Shown: one piece after another, positions 4,511-52,945 of the stretch
Layout: the number at the start of each line of letters is the position of its first letter
Numbering within the stretch: position 1 is the stretch's first letter
NCBI GenBank assembly: GCA_016181175.1
Contig: JACOZV010000004.1
Coordinates: 73,718-126,662 of the forward strand
DNA length: 52,945 bases
Source: Candidatus Yanofskybacteria bacterium
Lineage (GTDB): Bacteria > Patescibacteriota > Minisyncoccia > 2-02-FULL-40-12 > IGHO2-01-FULL-4-A
Direction: 5' to 3'
Program-made: the position numbers and the translations under genes
The notes under the pieces: generated by a model
Database searches by the model: none
The model's input: only the letters and a program-made list of their open reading frames with translations
Told to the model about the DNA's origin: nothing

Positions 4511-5931
4511 CGAACAAAACAATTACAAACCGAACAAGCAACGAACACAATATTATTAAATTGACCGACAGTTACAAGGTAACCCACTTTAGACAATACC
4601 CGCCGAACACCACGCATGTTTATTCTTATTTTGAGAGCAGAGGTGGACGCTGGCCGGAAGTTACTTTTTTTGGTCTACAATACATCCTGAAGCATTATTT
4701 TGCCGGCGTTCAGGTAACTTACGAAAAAATAGCAGAAGCCGACGAATACTTCAAAAAACATTTTGGCAACAACGCAATTTTCAACGAAGCCGGTTGGAAA
4801 CACATCGTAAACGAACATGGCGGACGCCTGCCCATCTCCATCAAAGCCATACCTGAAGGCACGACTGTCCCTGTTTCTAATGTTCTTATGACATTTGAAA
4901 ATACTGATCCAAAATGCTGGTGGCTCCCCAATTATCTTGAAACATTGGCGGTACAGGTTTGGTATCCGACCACGGTTTGCACCAATAGTCGGATGTCACG
5001 AAAACTTATACTTAGACACTTGGAAGAAACCGGCGATCCAAACTTGGTTGATTTTAAACTTCACGATTTCGGTTTCCGCGGCAGCACATCGGTGGAATCA
5101 GCTGGAATTGGCGGAGCAGCACATTTGGTCAGTTTTAAGGGGACCGACACTCTGGCCGCGATTGATATTGCCAGCAATTACTATCATGAAGACATGGCCG
5201 GATTTTCAATTCCAGCGGCAGAACACAGCACGATAACCGCCTGGGGCAAAGAATACGAAAGCTATGCCTATGAAAACATGCTAAAACAATTCTCTACCGG
5301 TCTTGTGGCAGTGGTAAGCGACAGTTACGACGTCTTTAACGCCTGCATGAATATCTGGGGAAAAAAGTTACGCGCCAAAGTGATGGGAAGAGACGGCACT
5401 CTGGTTATTCGCCCCGACAGCGGACATCCTCCAGAAATAGTTGTGCAGGTTTTGGACATCCTAGGCGAGGCTTTCGGATGCACTGTAAATAAAAGGGGGT
5501 ATCGTGTTCTTGATCCGCATGTGCGAGTCATCCAGGGAGACGGCATAGACCACGACATGATCGGTTCGGTTCTGGAAGCAATGAAAAATGCCAACTGGTC
5601 TGCGGACAATATCGCTTTTGGTTCTGGCGGTGGATTACTACAAAAAGTGAACCGTGATTCACAAAAATTCGCCTTCAAATGTAGTGCGATACGCGTTGAA
5701 ACATCTTGCGTAGGCGCAAGATGGCTTAATGTTTCAAAAGATCCGGTTACAGATCACCAGAAAAAGTCCAAAGCCGGACGTTTGTCCCTCGTACGAGACA
5801 TGGACGGCTCATTTAAAACTGTACAAGCCAGTGACAATGTTCTGCCAGATGAGCTAAAGGAAGTGTTCCGCGACGGTTCACTCCTAGTTGATGAAACCTT
5901 CAGCCAAATTCGCGAGAGAGCAAAAACATAA
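4507..5931 (+). CDS. nadV: Nicotinamide phosphoribosyltransferase (NAMPT/NadV)
   Basis: 474 aa with typical NAMPT strings: LTDSYKVTHFRQYP, FGFRGSTS, RPDSGHP, VIQGDGI. Confidence 0.9.
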   Translation: MTNKTITNRTSNEHNIIKLTDSYKVTHFRQYPPNTTHVYSYFESRGGRWPEVTFFGLQYILKHYFAGVQVTYEKIAEADEYFKKHFGNNAIFNEAGWKHIVNEHGGRLPISIKAIPEGTTVPVSNVLMTFENTDPKCWWLPNYLETLAVQVWYPTTVCTNSRMSRKLILRHLEETGDPNLVDFKLHDFGFRGSTSVESAGIGGAAHLVSFKGTDTLAAIDIASNYYHEDMAGFSIPAAEHSTITAWGKEYESYAYENMLKQFSTGLVAVVSDSYDVFNACMNIWGKKLRAKVMGRDGTLVIRPDSGHPPEIVVQVLDILGEAFGCTVNKRGYRVLDPHVRVIQGDGIDHDMIGSVLEAMKNANWSADNIAFGSGGGLLQKVNRDSQKFAFKCSAIRVETSCVGARWLNVSKDPVTDHQKKSKAGRLSLVRDMDGSFKTVQASDNVLPDELKEVFRDGSLLVDETFSQIRERAKT

Positions 5932-5951
5932 CAAAAACGTAACGAGAACTT

Positions 5952-5975
5952 GCTGCCACAAATGGCAGCTTTTTA
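5952..5975 (+). terminator. Intrinsic terminator after nadV
   Basis: GCTGCCA-caaa-TGGCAGC followed by TTTTT. Confidence 0.55.
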
Positions 5976-5999
5976 TTGCAAAAAAAAGGTGAGTTCCTC

Positions 6000-6027
6000 T
6001 TGCATTTTTAAAAAATGATGTTATTAT
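6000..6027 (+). promoter_or_regulatory. Candidate promoter of the acyl-CoA dehydrogenase gene (TTGCAT-16-TATTAT)
   Basis: TTGCAT at 6000-6005 and TATTAT at 6022-6027, upstream of the GGGGGGAG Shine-Dalgarno (SD) sequence and ATG 6065. Confidence 0.35.
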
Positions 6028-6064
6028 AAGCCTGCTGCAGTTTTTTAACAATTTGGGGGGGAGT

Positions 6065-7228
6065 ATGAACAAAGTGTTGCAAAGAAGCATATACCGCGAA
6101 GACTTGCTCCACATCGCAAATGAGGTCAGGGAATTCTCTCTTCAAGAAGTCCAGCCACATATTAATTTAAAAAATGAGTCGGAAAAGAAAAAAATTTTCA
6201 TGGAAAATATAGTCGCCGCAATGGCAAAATGCGGATATCTCGGCGCCCTAATACCAGAAGATTACGGTGGCATGGGCTATACGCTTACGGAATTCCTGCC
6301 GGTTATTGAGGGAATAGCGGCATTTTCAGGATCATTGGCACTGACCCTTGCCGGCCACAATCTTGCCGTTTCACACATTTTGCAAGCCGGCAGTGAAGAA
6401 CAAAAGCAAAAATATCTGCCTCGGCTTGCATCCGGAGAATTGGGCGCTTGGTGTTTAACAGAGCCCGGAGCAGGCTCTAACGCTTTTGGGGGAATGAAAT
6501 CAATGCTGGAACAAACAGAAGCAGAACTTTGGAAACTTGATGCCTTAAAAACTTTTATCACCAACGGCTGCCATGCGGGCATTTACGTCGTAACGGCGCG
6601 CGGCAAAAATAACAGCAACCAGCTTGGTATTTCTGCTTGTATTGTTGAAAAAGAAAAACATTGCCAAAACATTAAGGCACGGCCTCTTGGTAAAAAAATG
6701 GGGATGAATGAAAGCGATACGGCCGAAATTATTTTTGACGGCCTGAATGTTGAAATAAAAGATTTGCTTGGTTACCCCGGCCAAGCTCAAGAATCAATCA
6801 AAGCGGTACTTCGGCGAGGGCGTCTTGCAATAGCGGGATTTGCCCTTGGATTGGCAAGAGACTCGCTAGAACGCGCTATTGCATATACACCCATAAGAAT
6901 GGTTTCTGGTGGTAGCCTATTCAATAAGCAGTTGACGCAAGCAAAACTTGCAAAGATGGATTGCCAGCTATGGATCGCTTGGCAGGCAACACTGGCAGCT
7001 GCCCGACTGGCTGACGAAAATCTTCCTTTTGAAAATGAGGCCAGCAAAGCTAAATTAACAGCTAGTGAGATTGCTATTGACGTTTGTCATGAAGCAATAC
7101 AGCTTGTGGGTGGAACTGGTTATATGGAAGAAAGCAAGGTAGAAGGCAACTTCCGCGATGCACGGCTCTTGACCATAGGCGAAGGCACTTCCGAGATCTT
7201 ATTGCTATCCATCGCAAAAAAGTTATAA
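6065..7228 (+). CDS. Acyl-CoA dehydrogenase family protein
   Basis: ACAD hallmarks: LTEPGAGSN, FITNG, and a C-terminal GG.GY...R..RDARLLTIGEGTSEI. The ATG at 6065 is preferred over the track TTG at 6053 because it follows GGGGGGAG. Confidence 0.85.
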   Translation: MNKVLQRSIYREDLLHIANEVREFSLQEVQPHINLKNESEKKKIFMENIVAAMAKCGYLGALIPEDYGGMGYTLTEFLPVIEGIAAFSGSLALTLAGHNLAVSHILQAGSEEQKQKYLPRLASGELGAWCLTEPGAGSNAFGGMKSMLEQTEAELWKLDALKTFITNGCHAGIYVVTARGKNNSNQLGISACIVEKEKHCQNIKARPLGKKMGMNESDTAEIIFDGLNVEIKDLLGYPGQAQESIKAVLRRGRLAIAGFALGLARDSLERAIAYTPIRMVSGGSLFNKQLTQAKLAKMDCQLWIAWQATLAAARLADENLPFENEASKAKLTASEIAIDVCHEAIQLVGGTGYMEESKVEGNFRDARLLTIGEGTSEILLLSIAKKL

Positions 7229-7250
7229 TTTTTATTCGGTATTTTTTACA

Positions 7251-7276
7251 AATCTCTCAACGTGAGAGATTTTTTA
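7251..7276 (+). terminator. Intrinsic terminator after the ACAD gene
   Basis: AATCTCTC-aacgt-GAGAGATT followed by TTTTT. Confidence 0.55.
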
Positions 7277-7352
7277 TAACGATAAATACATATTGACAAA
7301 CGATAAGCAAATAAATTAAGATGAAAATATAAAAAATTTATAAGAACCACAC

Positions 7353-7799
7353 ATGAAAAGAAGCTCGACAATATTTCTTCAGGTAGTCATTGTGCTCATT
7401 GGCATCGTGGCGCTGGCCATCATGATCAGGTTTCCATTGACCGAGGGGAGAGCCGCAAACTTAGACCTGTTTAGTATTTAATCTATCGCATTTTTTGTTG
7501 CCCTATATCAAGCGTTCAAATTGCTCGGATATATCGGGCAAAATAAAGTATTCTCACTAGACTCTGTAAAGGCTTTAAGGACTATAAAGTATTGCGCAAT
7601 CGTATTGAGTATCTTAATTGTGATGTCAGCACTATACATAAGGATATTTCATGCTGAAGGTGACGATCCAGCGGGTTTTATTGCCGTGTCTATTGTGACT
7701 ACTTTTATTTCTATCGTAATCGCCACCGCCGTGGCCGTGTTTGAAAAAACTTTACAAAGTGCCATCGATATAAAGTCCGAGAACGATTTAACCATTTAA
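7353..7799 (+). pseudogene. DUF2975-like small membrane protein interrupted by an in-frame TAA (7479-7481)
   Basis: ATG 7353 gives MKRSSTIFLQVVIVLIGIVALAIMIRFPLTEGRAANLDLFSI. A TAA follows, and then the same frame continues SIAFFVALYQAFKLLGYIGQNKVF... into track ORF 7521..7799. The combined 149 codons, with 4 predicted TM segments, match the usual partner of the downstream YozG-type HTH. Confidence 0.55.
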
Positions 7800-47476: not shown

Positions 47477-48577
47477 TTATATTTCCCTCATTGCTAGTCC
47501 GATAGCTATAGAAAAAGTGGGATTAAGTTCAGAACGAATTTTGTCTAACCCCGGTGGCGTGATTAAACGGGCCAAGGGATTGCCAACGGCTAGTGGCAAA
47601 CCTAATTTGGCCCCAAAGTAATCCGCAAAATTGGGCATATTAGCCAAACCACCGACCAGAATTATTTTGGTAACCTTAGTATTTTTAAGTTCCTCGTAAC
47701 TATGTATGGTTTTTTTGGTTTCAAAAGCCATCATGTCAATCAGCGAACTCATAGCTTCCTGAATTACGTTATTATCAACGTCTTTGATACCGAAACTTCG
47801 TTTCAACTCCTCTGCTCTCTTTAGATTCACATTCAAAGATTTGGATATGGATTTGGTTATCTCAAATCCTCCAATCTCATAGTTGTGGCTAATTCTTTCG
47901 TACCCATTATCAACAATAAGAATTGAGGTGCTCCGTCCGCCAATATTTACTATCGCGACCGGACTAAGATCGTTTCCCAAAAGCGCCCTTATCAAAGCGG
48001 AATTCTCCAACTCAAGAGCGCGCAAATTCAGTCCGGCTGATTTCGTAATATTTTTATAACGTTCCGTTTCTTGCTTATGCACGGCAACAAGAAAAACCTC
48101 AACTGTGGGCGTTTTGGGGGTAGCTTGCTGGTTATTGATCTGCTGCTGCTGATTTTTGGTCGCTATGTTAATGATTGACCAATCCAGCACCACTTCATCA
48201 AGCGGTAGAGGTATGTACTTGCGCGCCTCAAAAGGAATCGTTTTGGCCATGTCTTTTTCTGAAAGATAAGGCATGGAAATAATAGTAGAAAAAGTAGAAA
48301 AGGTCGGTATGGATGCCACCGCCTCACGGGATTTGATTCCGGAACGTTTTATAACCTCGCGTATCCCCCATGCTAAATCCTGATCCGATAAATGAGCAGT
48401 CCTGGATACTTGTCTGCCAGAAGCGTTTAGCGTCTCCTCGATGGATTCCAGTTCGAAAAGGCCATAATTTTCAAGCTTAAAACGGCCGGATTCTTTTGAC
48501 AGTTCCACAATCTTAATTGAAGCCGTCCCGATGTCTATGCCGAGTTTTGATTTTGCTTTGAAACCGAAAAAATTCAT
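47477..48577 (-). CDS. pilM: Type IV pilus assembly ATPase-like protein PilM (actin fold)
   Basis: LGIDIGTASIKIVEL N-terminus, an internal GGRSTSI and a C-terminal ILVGGLA. Confidence 0.85.
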   Translation of the reverse strand: MNFFGFKAKSKLGIDIGTASIKIVELSKESGRFKLENYGLFELESIEETLNASGRQVSRTAHLSDQDLAWGIREVIKRSGIKSREAVASIPTFSTFSTIISMPYLSEKDMAKTIPFEARKYIPLPLDEVVLDWSIINIATKNQQQQINNQQATPKTPTVEVFLVAVHKQETERYKNITKSAGLNLRALELENSALIRALLGNDLSPVAIVNIGGRSTSILIVDNGYERISHNYEIGGFEITKSISKSLNVNLKRAEELKRSFGIKDVDNNVIQEAMSSLIDMMAFETKKTIHSYEELKNTKVTKIILVGGLANMPNFADYFGAKLGLPLAVGNPLARLITPPGLDKIRSELNPTFSIAIGLAMREI

Positions 48578-48589
48578 ACGTCTATTGTC

Positions 48590-48598
48590 ATTATACCA
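48590..48598 (-). promoter_or_regulatory. Extended -10 element (TGgTATAAT) upstream of pilM
   Basis: Minus strand TGGTATAAT, 12 nt before the pilM ATG. This implies a very short leader. Confidence 0.4.
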
Positions 48599-48621
48599 CT
48601 AGCTTGATAAATCTTATACAC

Positions 48622-49362
48622 ATGACCACATTAAAGAACTGGCTTCTTGATATCTTTTTCCCGCGGCACTGTTTGGGTTGTAATGTTTTGTTGCGGGAAA
48701 ATAAGCTTTCATATCTTTGCCAACATTGCCAAGCCGCGATCAAATTTAAAAATGACTTTGCCTGTGCTTTTTGCAGATCGCCCGTAAAAAATGGCAAAAC
48801 CTGCCAATTTTGTATTAAAGATCACTTTCTGGATAGGCTACTAGTCTCAACTTCATACGAAAACCCGCTTGCAGAAAAAAGTTTGAAAATGATGAAATAC
48901 AGATTTATCGCAATGCTTGCCGGTGACATTGCTGGTTTTATGGTTAAATACATGCAAAACAGCCTGATAAAAAAGCTGGGCATTGAAACAGGAACCGTTG
49001 TTGTGCCGGTACCGCTCCATCGCGAACGATTAAACTGGCGTGGATTCAACCAGTCAGAATTGATAGCTGTGAAAATCGCCGATAATTTCGAATGGCCCTT
49101 GGTCACGAACGAACTCAAACGAGTCCGAGCGAATAAACCGCAAATTGAAATGCCGGATCGTAATTCTCGTATAAAAAATATGAAAAATATTTTTCAATAT
49201 GCACCTGCGCGTGTAGGGTCGCCTGACATAAAAGGCAAAACCATTTTGCTTATTGATGATATTTCAACGACCGGTTCGACGCTTGACGATTGCGCCCGCG
49301 CCCTCAAGGGCGCGGGCGCAAAAAAAGTAATCGGATTCGTGTTCGCGAGAAACAAAATCTAA
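48622..49362 (+). CDS. comF: ComF family phosphoribosyltransferase-like competence protein
   Basis: N-terminal double CxxC zinc finger (CLGC...CQHC, CAFC...CQFC) and a C-terminal PRT motif ILLIDDISTTGSTL. The ATG at 48622 is preferred. Confidence 0.85.
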   Translation: MTTLKNWLLDIFFPRHCLGCNVLLRENKLSYLCQHCQAAIKFKNDFACAFCRSPVKNGKTCQFCIKDHFLDRLLVSTSYENPLAEKSLKMMKYRFIAMLAGDIAGFMVKYMQNSLIKKLGIETGTVVVPVPLHRERLNWRGFNQSELIAVKIADNFEWPLVTNELKRVRANKPQIEMPDRNSRIKNMKNIFQYAPARVGSPDIKGKTILLIDDISTTGSTLDDCARALKGAGAKKVIGFVFARNKI

Positions 49363-50231
49363 TCCAGTATCGTCTTTGCAATTTTATTTAACTCTTCGAG
49401 AGTCGAGAATTTGATTACTATGTTGCCTCCACTGGCACCAGTTCTGATAAAAACCGCCGCACCAAGATTTTTTGAAAGGTTTTGTTGGAGTTCTTCAAAT
49501 TTAGGACCGGAAACCGTTTGTTGACTGTTGGAATTATGTTCTTTGGCGACGTTTTCCAAATCGCGTACCGCAAAATTGCCAGTAAGAATACGTTTATACA
49601 TTTCGCGCTGTTTTTTCTCATCCTTGAACGAAAGCAGAGTGCGCGCATGAGTGCGGCTTATCTTACCTGCACGTAAGGCCAATTTGATATCAGCAGGCAG
49701 ACCAAGCAGCCGCATGGCATTCGCCACCACCTCACGGCTCTTGCCAACCTTATCGGCAATTTCTTTTTGCGTAAGTTTAAATTCGCTTGCCAGACGGGAA
49801 TATGCTTCCGATTCTTCAAGTGGATTGAGATCCTCACGCTGAATATTTTCAACCAAAGCAACCTCCAGCTTAAGACGGCCTTCATCAAAATTATCCTTAA
49901 CAATGGCCGGAACATGAGGTAAACCGGCTATCTTAGCCGCACGCCAACGCCGTTCACCGGCAACAATCTCATAAGTCACGTCCAATCCCCTATCTGTTTC
50001 GTGTTCCATTTTAGACACCAGTAAAGGCTGTAATATACCGTATTTTTTTATTGACGCCGCTAGCTCTTTGAGTCCGTCTTTATCAAAGTCATGCCTCGGC
50101 TGATTGGAATTAGGCCTGATCTTGTTTATCTCAATATAAAAAACGTTGTCCTGAATCTTTGGCGTAATCTTATTTGTCTTGGCCGGTATCAGCGACTCAA
50201 GGCCGCGACCCAAACCGAATAGTTTTTTCAT
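49359..50231 (-). CDS. parB: Chromosome partitioning protein ParB
   Basis: MKKLFGLGRGLESLIP, the ParB box GERRWRAA and an HTH. The ATG at 50231 is preferred over the track start. Confidence 0.92.
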   Translation of the reverse strand: MKKLFGLGRGLESLIPAKTNKITPKIQDNVFYIEINKIRPNSNQPRHDFDKDGLKELAASIKKYGILQPLLVSKMEHETDRGLDVTYEIVAGERRWRAAKIAGLPHVPAIVKDNFDEGRLKLEVALVENIQREDLNPLEESEAYSRLASEFKLTQKEIADKVGKSREVVANAMRLLGLPADIKLALRAGKISRTHARTLLSFKDEKKQREMYKRILTGNFAVRDLENVAKEHNSNSQQTVSGPKFEELQQNLSKNLGAAVFIRTGASGGNIVIKFSTLEELNKIAKTILD

Positions 50232-50363
50232 CCCGTACGAGACAGGAAATGATTTACACAAGTAAATCATTTCCGTGCCTATCGATAAATTAGTTTATTA
50301 ATCCCGATTAGATAACTATTGTAACCTTTCCTTGTTATTAGCAAAGGCTGTCTCGTTCGGGAT

Positions 50364-51125
50364 TCATCCTATATTAATAATTTCCTCGGCTAACTCTTTA
50401 TATGCTTGCGCGCCCTTGGAATTTTCATCAAATTGCAGAATGGTTTTGCCGAATCCAGGCGCTTCAGCCAATGATACGGAACGCGGAATTATCGTTTCAA
50501 AAACATGGCCGGGAAAATTCTTTTTAACTTCGGCAACAATCTCATTAGCCAACTTATTCCTCTTATCATACATTGTAAGCAATACGCCAAGAATCTTCAA
50601 CTGCGGGTTGAGCGATGTCCTGACCATATCAATTGTTTTGAAAAGTTGCGTCAGTCCCTCAAGGGCATAGTATTCGCACTGCACCGGTACTATTACCTGT
50701 TCTGCAGCTGCCAAACCATTGATTGTAAGAAGACCCAGGGATGGCGGACTGTCTATGAGAATGTAATCGTAATTGGTGCGAATTTTATTAAGCGAATTTT
50801 TTAATTTAAACTCCCGCTCTTCCATATCAACCAGCTCAACCGTGGCACCGGCAAGACTTGGAGCTGACGGCAAAATGTCAAAACCAAAAAGCGACGTTTT
50901 TCTTATGATTGCTCCCGGCTCTTGATTGTCAACCAGTGTATGATAAAGATTAACGTGGTCTTCACCGAGATGCACTCCGAGTCCCGATGTTGCATTCGCC
51001 TGCGGATCAAGGTCCACCAACAAAACATACTTGCCTAGCGATGCTAAGTAAGCTCCAAGATTGTTGGCAGTCGTTGTTTTTCCAACTCCACCCTTAGCGT
51101 TGATAATTCCAATAACTCTTGCCAT
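50364..51125 (-). CDS. parA: Chromosome partitioning ATPase ParA/Soj
   Basis: Deviant Walker A NAKGGVGKTT. 253 aa. Upstream of parB. Confidence 0.93.
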   Translation of the reverse strand: MARVIGIINAKGGVGKTTTANNLGAYLASLGKYVLLVDLDPQANATSGLGVHLGEDHVNLYHTLVDNQEPGAIIRKTSLFGFDILPSAPSLAGATVELVDMEEREFKLKNSLNKIRTNYDYILIDSPPSLGLLTINGLAAAEQVIVPVQCEYYALEGLTQLFKTIDMVRTSLNPQLKILGVLLTMYDKRNKLANEIVAEVKKNFPGHVFETIIPRSVSLAEAPGFGKTILQFDENSKGAQAYKELAEEIINIG

Positions 51126-51223
51126 AGATATTTATATTTTATTCTTTTAATTGAAAAAGTGCAAAAAGTTTGGTATCTTTTAAAAGTAGCCGCTGTGGGT
51201 GAAAAACGGGCAAGCGCAGTTTT

Positions 51224-52825
51224 TCACGGACAACAAAAAGTTGCCCCGGCCACCACAGTAAACAGTTTTTTGACGAGGAATGGCCGAGAAATTAAAAGCC
51301 GCTGTGGTGGAATTGGCAGACACGCACGACTCAAAATCGTGTGCCGTAAGGCATGTCGGTTCGACTCCGACCAGCGGCACCACGTTGGAAAAGTCAATGC
51401 CTCGCCCCGCCTTCGGCGGGTCTCGGCGACCAAATCGTACGGATTTTTCGGGGCAAAAAGAAATTCCCGATTCCGGTTTTTCAGAAATGTTGCCATTTCG
51501 GAAAGATTTTCTGATTCAAGTAAATTAGTGGCTTGATTCAAGGATTTAACGAACTCACGAGCCGGTTCGAGCCAATACAAACCTTTTTGCTCAAAGTCGG
51601 TGATTTTCTCGTTTAACTCGACCTTTTGGCAAATGAGGGTATCTTTTTTAGCGGCGTATTCTTTTTGTGTAAGCGCGTCGTCAAGATATGCGTCAAGCAA
51701 TTTTTGGAGCCTCGTTTCAACTTGCCATAATTGCATTTTAAGATTTACCACCTCACCCATCGCTTGTTCCTTTGCCTGTTTTTCTTCCGTGTCTAACGCC
51801 GCCAAAACCTTTTCGGTATCTTGGCTCGACAAAGAAACTTTTTGAAGGAAGTTTTTGATTTGTTCCACTAACTGACTTTCATCAAGATATTTTTCTTGGC
51901 ACGCGCCTCGCTTTTTTGTACAGCGATAGTAAGTGTAAATACCGCCATTACCTTTTGCATATTGAGCAGTTATCGAGCAGCCGCACGAGGCGCACTTCAT
52001 AAGGCCAAGAAAAGGAAAGTTATGTTTCCTGTCCGGTCTCACTTTTCCGCGTTTCGTCATCACTTCCTGACATTGATCAAAAAGTTTCTTTGAGGTTAAC
52101 GGCTCGTGTGTTCCCTCAAAAATTTCTCCTTTGTATCGCATAAGCCCGATGTAAAAAGGATTTTGGAGAATATGCTGAACATTGCTCAATGATATTTTGT
52201 TTCCGGCATTCGTGAGCAACTTCTTTTTCTCACACCAATTTGCGAGAGCAATGAGAGGATATGCTCCAGTGGCATACATTTCAAAGATTTTCTTTACTAG
52301 AAGAGCTTTTTCGGTATCAAGATCAATACCGCGCGATTTGGGGTTATTGAGATAGCCCACCGGAGCCCAACTTGGCCATACTCCATTTCGTATCTTTTGT
52401 CGTAAACCCCTTTTTACGTTCTCTCGCAAATTATCCACAAAGTATTTACTCTGTCCAAAAGCAATGTTCAGCATAAATAATCCTTGTGGTGTCGGTTCAA
52501 ACCAGAAGCAGGGAAATTTGAGGGAACGAATCAAGCCGCGATCAACGAAGTGGATTATCTTCCCCCCATCGACCGAATTTCTTGCAAGACGATCTGGGTG
52601 CCACGAAATAATCCCGTCTGCTTTTCCCTGTTCCAAAAATGACAACATTTCTGCGAATTTAATTCGCCCGGGTTCTTTTGCGGTTTTGGCCTCTTGGAAA
52701 GAGGCGACAATTTCAAGTTTTTCTTTGGCGGCAAATTCTTTGAGCTCAACGAGTTGAGCTTCAATACTTAATACTTGACGGTCATCTTCTTCAGTACTTT
52801 TCCTCGCGTAGATGATGTATTTCAT
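51224..52825 (-). CDS. Large serine recombinase (resolvase catalytic domain, recombinase domain, zinc ribbon, coiled coil); 3' end uncertain
   Basis: N-terminus MKYIIYARKSTEEDDRQVLSIEAQ (catalytic Ser context) and a zinc ribbon CASCGCSITAQ...YYRC followed by a coiled coil. The last ~80 codons read through IR-L and antisense through tRNA-Leu (RWSESNRHA), so the true C-terminus is doubtful. Confidence 0.85.
   Translation of the reverse strand: MKYIIYARKSTEEDDRQVLSIEAQLVELKEFAAKEKLEIVASFQEAKTAKEPGRIKFAEMLSFLEQGKADGIISWHPDRLARNSVDGGKIIHFVDRGLIRSLKFPCFWFEPTPQGLFMLNIAFGQSKYFVDNLRENVKRGLRQKIRNGVWPSWAPVGYLNNPKSRGIDLDTEKALLVKKIFEMYATGAYPLIALANWCEKKKLLTNAGNKISLSNVQHILQNPFYIGLMRYKGEIFEGTHEPLTSKKLFDQCQEVMTKRGKVRPDRKHNFPFLGLMKCASCGCSITAQYAKGNGGIYTYYRCTKKRGACQEKYLDESQLVEQIKNFLQKVSLSSQDTEKVLAALDTEEKQAKEQAMGEVVNLKMQLWQVETRLQKLLDAYLDDALTQKEYAAKKDTLICQKVELNEKITDFEQKGLYWLEPAREFVKSLNQATNLLESENLSEMATFLKNRNREFLFAPKNPYDLVAETRRRRGEALTFPTWCRWSESNRHALRHTILSRACLPIPPQRLLISRPFLVKKLFTVVAGATFCCP
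51298..51382 (+). tRNA. tRNA-Leu (anticodon CAA), CCA encoded
   Basis: GCCGCTG-TG-GTGGAATTGGCAGACAC-G-CACGA-CTCAAAA-TCGTG-TGCCGTAAGGCATG-TCGG-TTCGACT-CCGA-CCAGCGGC-ACCA. Long variable arm, 7-bp acceptor stem. Confidence 0.9.
51401..51475. repeat. Left copy of a 75-bp perfect inverted repeat (IR-L), 18 bp after tRNA-Leu
   Basis: CTCGCCCCGCCTTCGGCGGGTCTCGGCGACCAAATCGTACGGATTTTTCGGGGCAAAAAGAAATTCCCGATTCCG is the exact reverse complement of 52871-52945. Confidence 0.9.
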
Positions 52826-52870
52826 AGTTTTGTTTAGTTAATTATTAAAATTTTTCTTTTCTGCTTCTAA

Positions 52871-52945
52871 CGGAATCGGGAATTTCTTTTTGCCCCGAAA
52901 AATCCGTACGATTTGGTCGCCGAGACCCGCCGAAGGCGGGGCGAG
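52871..52945. repeat. Right copy of the 75-bp inverted repeat (IR-R), truncated by the window end
   Basis: Exact reverse complement of 51401-51475. Identity stops at the inner boundary (52870 differs) and may continue beyond 52945. Confidence 0.9.

Follow-up and report, generated by a model that had tools for sequence, protein, structure and literature searches.

The right-hand end of the 52,945-nucleotide stretch of Candidatus Yanofskybacteria DNA analysed here (to be referred to as the window) carries a gene for a large serine recombinase (LSR), which is bracketed by a perfect inverted repeat and located directly behind a tRNA-Leu(CAA) gene. With a probability of roughly 0.75, we believe that the window ends inside an integrated mobile element, belonging to a Patescibacteria-wide LSR family that would integrate by attP × attB recombination at the 3′ ends of tRNA genes. 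The inverted repeat is due to the presence, inside the element, of the attachment region in a second copy. An initial annotation, made from the sequence alone, had offered three explanations: an invertible or mobile cassette at a tRNA, the margin of an integrated element that continues rightward, and an assembly fold-back at a contig end. The second of these fits both the architecture of the family and an empty tRNA-Leu site in a syntenic scaffold (see below).

The two arms of the inverted repeat, at 51401–51475 (IR-L) and 52871–52945 (IR-R), were located with a repeat finder. They are 75 nt long and 100% complementary, with 1395 nt between them, and the last base of IR-R is the end of the window. 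A perfect 75-nt inverted repeat cannot have arisen by chance in 53 kb (about N² × 4^-75). The tRNA-Leu(CAA) gene (51298–51382, plus strand) is found by both ARAGORN and Rfam (56.9 bits), and a gap of 18 nt separates its end at 51382 from the start of the repeat at 51401. The open reading frame (ORF) of the recombinase has 533 codons and occupies 51224–52825 on the minus strand, with matches in Pfam, PHROG and solved structures. The inner boundary of the repeat falls directly after …ATFLKN in this frame. This boundary and all the coordinates in the initial annotation proved to be correct in these searches and in a check of the ORFs.

The repeat is a feature of the family as a whole. Eighty related loci were taken from species-representative genomes, about 62 of them with enough flanking sequence. 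In 44 of these ~62 loci, the gene is bracketed by an inverted repeat of 86–115 nt (most about 100), the arms of which are at least 94% identical. Many of these repeats are internal to contigs of 20–239 kb, from differing projects and assemblers. The arms in the window are the inner 75 nt of such a ~100-nt repeat, because they are 99% identical to the repeat of a relative (L004). The window sequence from the O arm (defined below) to the inner end of the repeat has 99% identity to the L004 repeat over 99 nt, IR-R has 99% identity to its positions 25–104, and repeat and leader together are 96–99% identical to those of L004. In the relatives, the repeat also takes in the 18-nt spacer and the terminal ~6 nt of the tRNA (GCACCA), which bears out the earlier suspicion that it is longer than 75 nt. 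The suggestion that it includes an inverted second copy of the tRNA is not borne out, as a conserved T-arm-like mimic follows GCACCA and a real inverted tRNA is present only in L045. The window and three related contigs (L001, L019 and L064) end inside the upstream arm, which is ordinary assembler behaviour at repeats.

Complete elements in the relatives are 2.45–4.4 kb in size, with a median of about 2.7 kb. With the recombinase on the plus strand, their layout from left to right starts with host DNA, the core (TGGTGC), an inverted D segment (D_R′-h2-D_L′), N′ (the reverse complement of recombinase nt ~82–119), and one gene on the minus strand. This gene is followed by the modules alpha and then beta, by C (the reverse complement of recombinase nt 138–158), the D segment (D_L-h2-D_R), GCACCA, and the upstream arm (O, h3 and IR_L). 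The remainder consists of alpha′, the recombinase gene with beta′ at its end, the downstream arm, and TGGTGC as part of a tRNA on the minus strand. In 39 loci, the upstream arm borders at its outer end on a conserved D segment. Because D and its inverted copy are alike (mostly 84–100% identical), the two 100-nt pairs are the halves of one ~210-nt repeat, of which there is one intact copy (D-GCACCA-arm) and one split copy. At four loci, two neighbouring tRNA genes in the same orientation (Ile/Ala, Ile/Val, Phe/Pro and Leu/Pro) have the complete ~2.5–3.4-kb block as their spacer, and the gaps that remain are −1 to 14 nt. The full layout is present in L004, L002, L006 and L085, whose repeats are 96–100% identical to each other. 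The window holds only the upstream arm, alpha′, the recombinase gene (with beta′ missing), the downstream arm and the tRNA, and the rest of its 53 kb contains none of the remaining modules of the family.

Twenty tRNA species (34 loci) adjoin the downstream arm at its outer end. Three junctions can be read at each of ~35 loci, namely D_R-[..GCACCA]-O in the internal intact copy, D_R-[..GCA(C)(CA)]-host at the far end, and tRNA-[GCACCA]-O. The sequence common to the three is only a 3–8-nt core, located at the last acceptor base, the discriminator and CCA. Beside this core, the O arm is conserved as AGGAAAtgtCAA both at the tRNA junction and in the internal intact copy (38–39 loci). The three types of junction are those expected if attP (D_R|O) and attB (tRNA|downstream) recombine reciprocally, and their overlaps place the crossover probably at about tRNA nt 72–74. 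The initial annotation had pointed out that integration normally produces direct repeats rather than inverted ones. Such a direct repeat is in fact present, as the short 3–8-nt core (the tRNA end) at the far end of complete relatives.

The window itself contains just the tRNA-core-O junction. Its tRNA-Leu(CAA) gene is the integration target and the attB-derived side of this junction. The core GCACCA (tRNA nt 71–76; 51377–51382, plus strand) would contain the crossover, judging from the end of homology among the window, L001 and L088 and from the junctions of the relatives. It is followed by the O arm CGTTGGAAAAGTCAATG (51383–51399, plus strand), which is single-copy within the window and represents the element-side half-site, a P′-type arm of attP. 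The long repeat is represented by IR-L, which is the half of its split copy next to the tRNA, and by IR-R, the inner 75 nt of a second, probably intact copy that is truncated by the end of the window.

D_R carries the T-loop motif GTTCGRAC, and in 31 of 36 loci its distance from the core exceeds that of the T-loop in the neighbouring tRNA by exactly 5 nt. For LI integrase, the motif bound by the zinc-ribbon domain is 5 bp nearer the centre in attB than in attP (Rutherford et al., PMC3783163). The sites of the family obey the same rule of a 5-bp offset between attP and attB motifs. The search for attB/attP-like sites proposed earlier has produced D_R-core-O as attP and the tRNA 3′ end as attB, together with the offset. 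Two other features of the sites were considered and rejected. A crossover at the centre of h3 is not compatible with the complete h3 in each arm, and dyad symmetry of the attP arms amounts to a weak match by eye. As a sub-hypothesis, a bare recombinase unit might cross over at the inner repeat boundaries into a palindromic target; this fits the geometry of the alpha|beta junction, and no empty palindrome was found.

An element-free version of the site is present in L088, a 733-kb scaffold that shares the ParA-ParB-ComF-PilM synteny with the window and has a ParA that is 87% identical. In L088, tRNA-Leu(CAA) adjoins ParA and is followed by …GGGCA|CATTCC, a hairpin, and a PBP gene. When the occupied sites (the window and L001) are aligned with L088, the homology stops right after GGCAC. 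Since occupied sites read ..GCACCA and native ones are without CCA, the target tRNA receives its encoded CCA from the element, and the CCA of the window tRNA-Leu is probably derived from the element. Native tRNA genes without an encoded CCA are located at 6830–6850 in L088 (..GGGCA|CATTCC..) and at 4905–4925 in L020 (..GGGCA|CTTGAAAC..).

In the proposed mechanism, the LSR would carry out a conservative attP × attB recombination that places the element at the very 3′ terminus of a tRNA gene, in the window that of tRNA-Leu(CAA). The crossover would fall at tRNA nt ~72–74, which are the final acceptor base, the discriminator and the leading C of CCA. The attP would be about 50 bp long, its D_R arm mimicking the T-loop (GTTCGRAC) and its O arm corresponding to the 17 nt now found after the window tRNA. 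The mobile form would contain two inverted ~210-nt repeats (D_L-h2-D_R-core-O-h3-IR_L), each with an attP at its centre. These repeats would divide a recombinase arc from a cassette arc, and integration would open one of them. From the split copy, the O-h3-IR_L half would remain at the tRNA (IR-L, the 18-nt spacer and GCACCA) and the D half would go to the far end. The other copy would stay intact upstream of the recombinase gene, with IR-R as its inner part, and the inner ~54 nt of the repeat would code for the conserved end of the recombinase. We infer both the circular intermediate with its two repeats and the exact crossover dinucleotide. Past 52945, CATTGACTTTTCCAACGTGGTGC and the D segment would be expected, then a cassette and the far junction. 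It is likely that this standard layout continues past base 52945 in the window genome, because the four elements with a 98–99% identical repeat all have it.

Several points weigh against this reading. An excised circle or a second intact repeat is present in none of the contigs, and a metagenome scan for a closed recombinase-unit junction returned only the rearranged contig L084 (see below). No directionality factor is evident. The two copies of attP are identical, yet the split one is almost always downstream of the gene, a bias not accounted for by the model, which also gives no role to the ~80 nt by which the repeat extends to either side of attP. Neither a far junction nor a cassette is present within the window. 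Moreover, about 18 of the 62 informative loci deviate, in the type of their arms, by deletions in the intact copy, or by a missing arm. The arms of L012 are alike only in the inner 60 nt, those of L032 and L047 are of different sequence types, and one arm is lost in L065 and L051. In L007, the internal attP and the D segment are lost and beta′ is missing as in the window. With this fellow as a precedent, the absence of beta′ means that the window copy may be crippled or non-standard beyond 52945, and that its partial degeneration is possible.

The 1.4-kb recombinase segment could instead be a working invertible switch, flipped by the recombinase or by RecA, with orientations that differ functionally, as might be the case for expression of the recombinase. 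Both arms bear the 3′ coding end and the leader-adjacent sequence, and the gene would be intact, with the same ±100-nt context, either way; the near-perfect identity of the arms also implies continuing exchange between them. A gene that is flipped relative to the cassette does occur in one of the 120 closest homologues (P0091, in the metagenome contig L083). It is the only one that reads into the D segment, and almost all other readable tails (117 are readable) enter antisense-tRNA-like sequence. Contig L083 is only 2.6 kb long, and the flip could be a mis-join through the repeat. A search for the flipped isomer with a D-coded peptide returned only short calls; it missed P0091 itself, so that it is silent on frequency. 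The orientation is the same in all 39 loci with both flanks mapped. In addition, the enzyme is of the large serine integrase type, unlike the small invertases, and these have known sites of only a quarter of the length of the arms. We regard a functional switch as unlikely. From the cassette explanation in the initial annotation, the mobile element at a tRNA stands, and inversion is left with one flipped contig of 120.

Somewhat less probable still is the proposal that the repeat-recombinase-repeat unit is itself the mobile unit, similar to an insertion sequence (IS), with ~100-nt terminal inverted repeats and insertion beside CCA ends. The D segments and cassettes would then be mere neighbours. 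L010 and L045 have repeat-gene-repeat without a D segment or cassette in reach, and the transposase-like ORF ends within the terminal repeat, as in many IS elements. However, the outer end of the upstream arm meets the conserved D segment, and not target DNA, in 39 loci, and the block that fills the tRNA-tRNA spacer in four loci is complete and includes the cassette. There is no target duplication at the arm ends, and the far end has a direct copy of the tRNA core.

L045 itself fits an exchange in which the internal attP recombined with another tRNA gene. Its recombinase gene (5700–7650) is located between inward-facing tRNA 3′ ends, which belong upstream to a complete tRNA(CGC) and downstream to a 3′ fragment of a tRNA beside tRNA-Ala(TGC); a D segment or cassette is absent within 6 kb. 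This arrangement looks like the product expected from internal attP × second tRNA gene recombination, which inverts a chromosome segment, and the intact copy looks recombination-proficient.

The third reading, in which the repeat is an assembly artefact (a contig-end fold-back or a chimera), draws on IR-R reaching the last base of the window and on the several related contigs that stop in the upstream arm, and it is highly improbable given that the repeat is found mid-contig, in contigs of up to 239 kb, in independent assemblies from many projects and assemblers.

The recombinase is a bona fide LSR with the integration logic of serine integrases. It contains the Pfam domains Resolvase (PF00239, E = 1.2e-21, residues 4–150), Recombinase (PF07508, 1.1e-17) and Zn_ribbon_recom (PF13408, 3.1e-9). 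The catalytic Ser10 in YARKST (52796–52798) is almost invariant in an alignment of 24 homologues, in which the zinc-ribbon Cys motif CASCGC…YYRCTKKRGxC is also conserved. Residues ~330–430 are heptad-rich by eye. The match to the PHROG 95 integrase has an E value of 6e-81, that to the PHROG ‘DNA invertase’ covers just the catalytic third, and the nearest solved structures are those of the SPbeta and A118 serine integrases. The protein is far under the curated NCBIfam cut-offs for CcrA/B/C, XisF and IS607. The best match, to CcrB, scores 104.7 bits (cut-off 900), followed by XisF with 93.6 (375) and CcrA with 75.3 (700). The IS607-family model (26.5 against 110 bits) matches the catalytic core alone, and the catalytic domain is N-terminal in the window protein. 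There are thousands of homologues, at roughly 7,700 loci, and the 120 closest clusters are 69–89% identical, almost all from assemblies of Candidate Phyla Radiation (CPR)/Patescibacteria. An exact look-up of the window recombinase in the contig index gave no match.

The initial annotation had proposed that the native C-terminus of this protein is replaced by repeat- and tRNA-coded residues. The repeat-coded tail RNREFLFAPKNPYDLVAE (51422–51475, minus strand) is, however, conserved as …FLKN(IGSNHIL)RNREFLFAPKNPYDLVAE in the 24 aligned homologues and the 120 tails (117 readable), beside many different tRNAs. Past this tail is a variable stretch, then …L(T/Q)FPxWC, and then an antisense-tRNA peptide of the ..ESNxxP.. 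kind that differs for each protein. Among the homologues, the tails after …TWC vary with the adjoining tRNA. Column entropy per codon position (1/2/3), computed over 44 loci, is 0.84/0.53/1.24 in the gene body and 0.68/0.55/1.06 in the 18 repeat-coded codons, compared to 1.31/0.97/1.08 in the variable stretch h3 and 0.90/0.93/0.96 in the O arm and core. The selected end of the protein is placed inside the repeat, at about …LVAE (51422), because the entropy by codon position is body-like up to there. The ORF then reads through h3, the O arm, the antisense tRNA and the upstream spacer (51224–51421, minus strand) with no codon periodicity, and these last 66 codons of the window ORF are tolerated, unconstrained read-through. 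By these patterns of conservation, the native C-terminus is kept rather than replaced, and its repeat-coded tail is under coding constraint. The claim that the end of the ORF is antisense to the tRNA is correct, but not that the native end is lost, as constraint runs to …LVAE.

The beta′ module ATCGGCTCGAACCATATTTTA (codons IGSNHIL) is removed from the window gene by a 21-nt in-frame deletion at 51475..51476. These codons are present in nearly all homologues, and the deletion is located exactly at the inner repeat boundary; in the module map, the match to the recombinase C-terminus ends at query position 151. The same deletion is found in P0002 and L007, both Adlerbacteria homologues, and it may be a sign of an immobilised sub-lineage.

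The GC-rich, hypervariable h3 segment of the repeat (51400–51431) codes for …TRRRRGEA in the window element. A role of h3 as a terminator or stable hairpin was rejected, as there are no terminator-like sites and the single-arm fold has z = −0.7. A small protein coded in the element flank was rejected as well, since the frames there are open only through DNA conservation and the matching ‘proteins’ are spurious calls of 32–79 residues. Rfam searches of the window region returned the tRNA and chance-level matches only, and those of the conserved upstream segment of L004 likewise gave no known RNA. The D segment therefore appears to be no known RNA.

The intact copy of attP may act as a promoter. 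A sigma-70-like pattern (TTGaca, 17 nt, TAttcT) is present on its strand from O′ to D_R′ in 38 of 41 loci, and in none of the split copies at the tRNA. The −35 element is located in O and the −10 element in D_R, with the crossover core in the spacer (L004 5848–5876, minus strand), and the pattern is directed into the cassette gene. The reverse complement of the window O arm holds TTGACT, a −35-like hexamer.

The relatives carry one or two single-gene cassettes beyond the intact copy, with, as a rule, one space-filling ORF between the inverted D segment and alpha. The cassette ORFs are mutually unrelated. The enzymes among them are dihydroorotate dehydrogenase, SAICAR synthetase, a short-chain dehydrogenase, a subtilase and three methyltransferases; other cargo includes a Na/Ca exchanger, an HNH protein and small membrane-anchored proteins. 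L002 and L004 are 98.6% identical over 278 nt of alpha-beta-C-D-arm but their recombinase genes only 86%, with unrelated cargo. In L020 and L029, 86% identity over recombinase and flank is likewise combined with unrelated cargo. L033 has a single cassette, which is matched by the first cassette of L006 (80% over 1168 nt), and the extra cassette of L006 is at the recombinase-proximal position. These comparisons of sequence show apparent exchange of cassettes between elements.

The boundary between tandem cassettes reads alpha-beta-C-[palindrome]-N′ and is colinear with the antisense of recombinase nt 158–82, a region in which the recombinase gene has its own palindrome, GCCTCTT-TCC-AAGAGGC. In the window, the corresponding C/P1 palindrome/N′ stretch is located within the recombinase gene (codons ~28–53; 52667–52731, plus strand), with the P1 palindrome GCCTCTTGGAAAGAGGC at 52689–52705. 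This stretch recurs at the cassette boundaries of relatives without the remainder of the recombinase gene. The alpha module AAAATTTTTCTTTTCTGCTTCTA (52847–52869, plus strand), which is the leader of the recombinase gene just inside IR-R, also recurs ahead of the cassette gene in relatives. The cassettes look like non-autonomous derivatives of the recombinase unit, in which the leader, the 3′ end and the palindrome-centred stretch are kept and circularly permuted, and their structure suggests site-specific recombination at the cassette level. Additional recombinase copies or fragments are found near elements in L012 (1–125, an inverted recombinase N-terminus in the cassette position), L036 (288–1652), L085 (1749–3467, a second LSR that is 66% similar, 2 kb away) and L052 (11429–12794).

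More speculatively, the family could be a serine-recombinase counterpart of the integron on a tRNA-hopping platform, a proposal that we hold to be possible though doubtful. Cassettes would be captured or exchanged at the palindromic sites beside the recombinase gene and expressed from the intact-attP promoter. The 2.5–4.4-kb platform would move among tRNA genes and CPR lineages via the shared T-loop/CCA features, and the inverted duplication of attP and the complementary pairs described next would serve a folded single-stranded transfer form or programmed inversions.

The recombinase gene contains five conserved long-range complementary pairs of 13–18 nt, arranged in nested and serial fashion. 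In the coding sequence of L004, they are located at nt 173–188/1329–1344, 351–366/640–655, 393–406/577–590, 734–749/981–996 and 997–1009/1247–1259. In the window, the repeat finder located Pa at 51482–51498/52637–52653 and two further pairs at 51830–51845/52077–52092 and 52171–52186/52460–52475. Watson-Crick pairing over 70 loci is 56–94% (86–94% for Pa, Pd and Pe), as compared to 11–55% when the partner is slid by 1–3 columns. Compensatory double changes are present at several pair positions, and there is no strand bias of G-T over A-C. An mRNA structure, a fold of single-stranded DNA, and inversion sites are candidate roles for these pairs.

In L084, a 1.2-kb metagenome contig (1–1232), the antisense N-terminal region of a recombinase is joined to the 3′ end of the gene via the 18-nt internal repeat GAATTGCCAACATTTCTG, and the sequence continues into beta′|alpha′, a cargo ORF, N and D_L, with a coverage of 5. 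The junction is the one expected from inversion between the outermost pair. The contig is either a rearranged element, with the recombinase body inverted and in tandem with a cassette, or a chimera.

The host context of the element (47477–51125) consists of the CPR-typical genes for ParA, ParB, a ComF-like phosphoribosyltransferase and PilM, followed in relatives by type IV pilus genes. The ParA-ParB-ComF-PilM block is syntenic in L001, L086 and L088, and competence and pilus genes adjoin the integration site. The short copies of the tRNA-Leu 5′ end that had been noticed upstream are indeed present, in direct (51188–51203) and inverted (51250–51258) orientation, and occur again in L001 (1755–1775); the segment 51188–51203 has 88% identity to 51297–51312. 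They are located in an extra segment of ~100 nt in the ParA-tRNA interval, which is present in the window and L001 and absent in L088, and which could be a tRNA-like remnant or a hairpin. Some bins among the loci L014, L028, L031, L034, L044, L049 and L059 are labelled Gammaproteobacteria, Omnitrophota, Latescibacterota or Woesearchaeota in their record titles. Contamination with CPR contigs is more likely here than true hosts of these kinds. A scan of viral contigs (IMG/VR) found no relatives of the element.

The family is common in CPR/Patescibacteria and is apparently undescribed; full-text literature searches found no description of it. Few mobile elements are recognised in the ultra-small CPR bacteria, whose genomes are tiny. 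This element family is abundant across many of their candidate phyla, with exchangeable genes for metabolism, transport, proteolysis and methylation, and genes may pass between these bacteria largely by way of it. The repeat also explains the frequent breaks of CPR contigs behind tRNA genes, and the recombinases with odd, tRNA-antisense C-termini that are produced by gene callers. Known large serine integrases are mostly described at a single protein-coding or intergenic site. An integrase that reads the shared T-loop/CCA architecture would, if this is true, be a natural multi-site, feature-specific integrase.

The closest known systems are the phage LSRs (A118/LI, SPbeta SprA, Bxb1 and phiC31), which have the same set of domains, an attP of about 50 bp, the 5-bp offset and a short shared core. 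In comparison, the family has as its target the 3′ end of tRNA genes in general (20 species) and not one unique gene, its elements are 2.5–4.4 kb in size with no phage genes and no evident directionality factor, the attP is duplicated in inverted orientation within a 210-nt repeat, and the integrase ORF crosses the attachment region. The CcrAB and CcrC recombinases of the staphylococcal cassette chromosome (SCCmec) are also LSRs; the cargo cassettes that they insert are located at the 3′ end of a housekeeping gene that is conserved and RNA-related, and can form tandem arrays. SCC elements, however, are tens of kb in size, target rlmH, and have neither a long internal inverted repeat nor single-gene cassettes with repeated boundary modules. 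Tycheposons are small cargo-carrying elements at tRNA genes that form stacked arrays, and a minority of tycheposon-like elements have an LSR. They mostly have tyrosine recombinases tied to particular tRNAs, with a long direct repeat of the tRNA, and many carry replication genes; in the present family only 3–8 nt are shared, and the T-arm of the tRNA is mimicked, not copied.

The Hin, Gin and Pin segments and the shufflons resemble the family in having a serine recombinase gene inside or beside a segment with inverted sites. The Hin/Gin/Pin enzymes, in contrast to its 533-codon LSR, are small invertases with a C-terminal helix-turn-helix (HTH), and they use ~26-bp sites and an enhancer, with both orientations common, whereas the arms here are about 100 nt and the orientation is almost fixed. 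Integrons likewise have a recombinase beside promoterless-looking single-gene cassettes with palindrome-bearing boundary modules, a new cassette at the recombinase-proximal position, and a promoter-like site facing the array. Their IntI is a tyrosine recombinase acting on attI and attC, whereas the family enzyme is a serine recombinase, its arrays have 1–2 cassettes, the platform itself is mobile and tRNA-targeted, and capture is putative. IS607 differs by its small serine transposase with an N-terminal HTH and by having no terminal inverted repeats. The promoter-like intact copy recalls the junction promoters of IS circles, with −35 and −10 on opposite sides of the recombination point and a promoter only where the ends join, and the res sites of Tn3/gamma-delta, located between divergent recombinase and cargo genes. 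Unlike in IS circles, the joined copy is permanent inside the integrated element, and regulation by recombinase binding is a conjecture.

SCCmec, tycheposons, integrons and invertible segments each share one aspect with the family, and it comes out as a member of none of them. It differs from known systems in its generic tRNA-end target with a T-arm mimic in attP and in its duplicated, inverted attP, and further in the ORF through the attachment region, the very small size, the absence of phage genes, and the single-gene cassettes.

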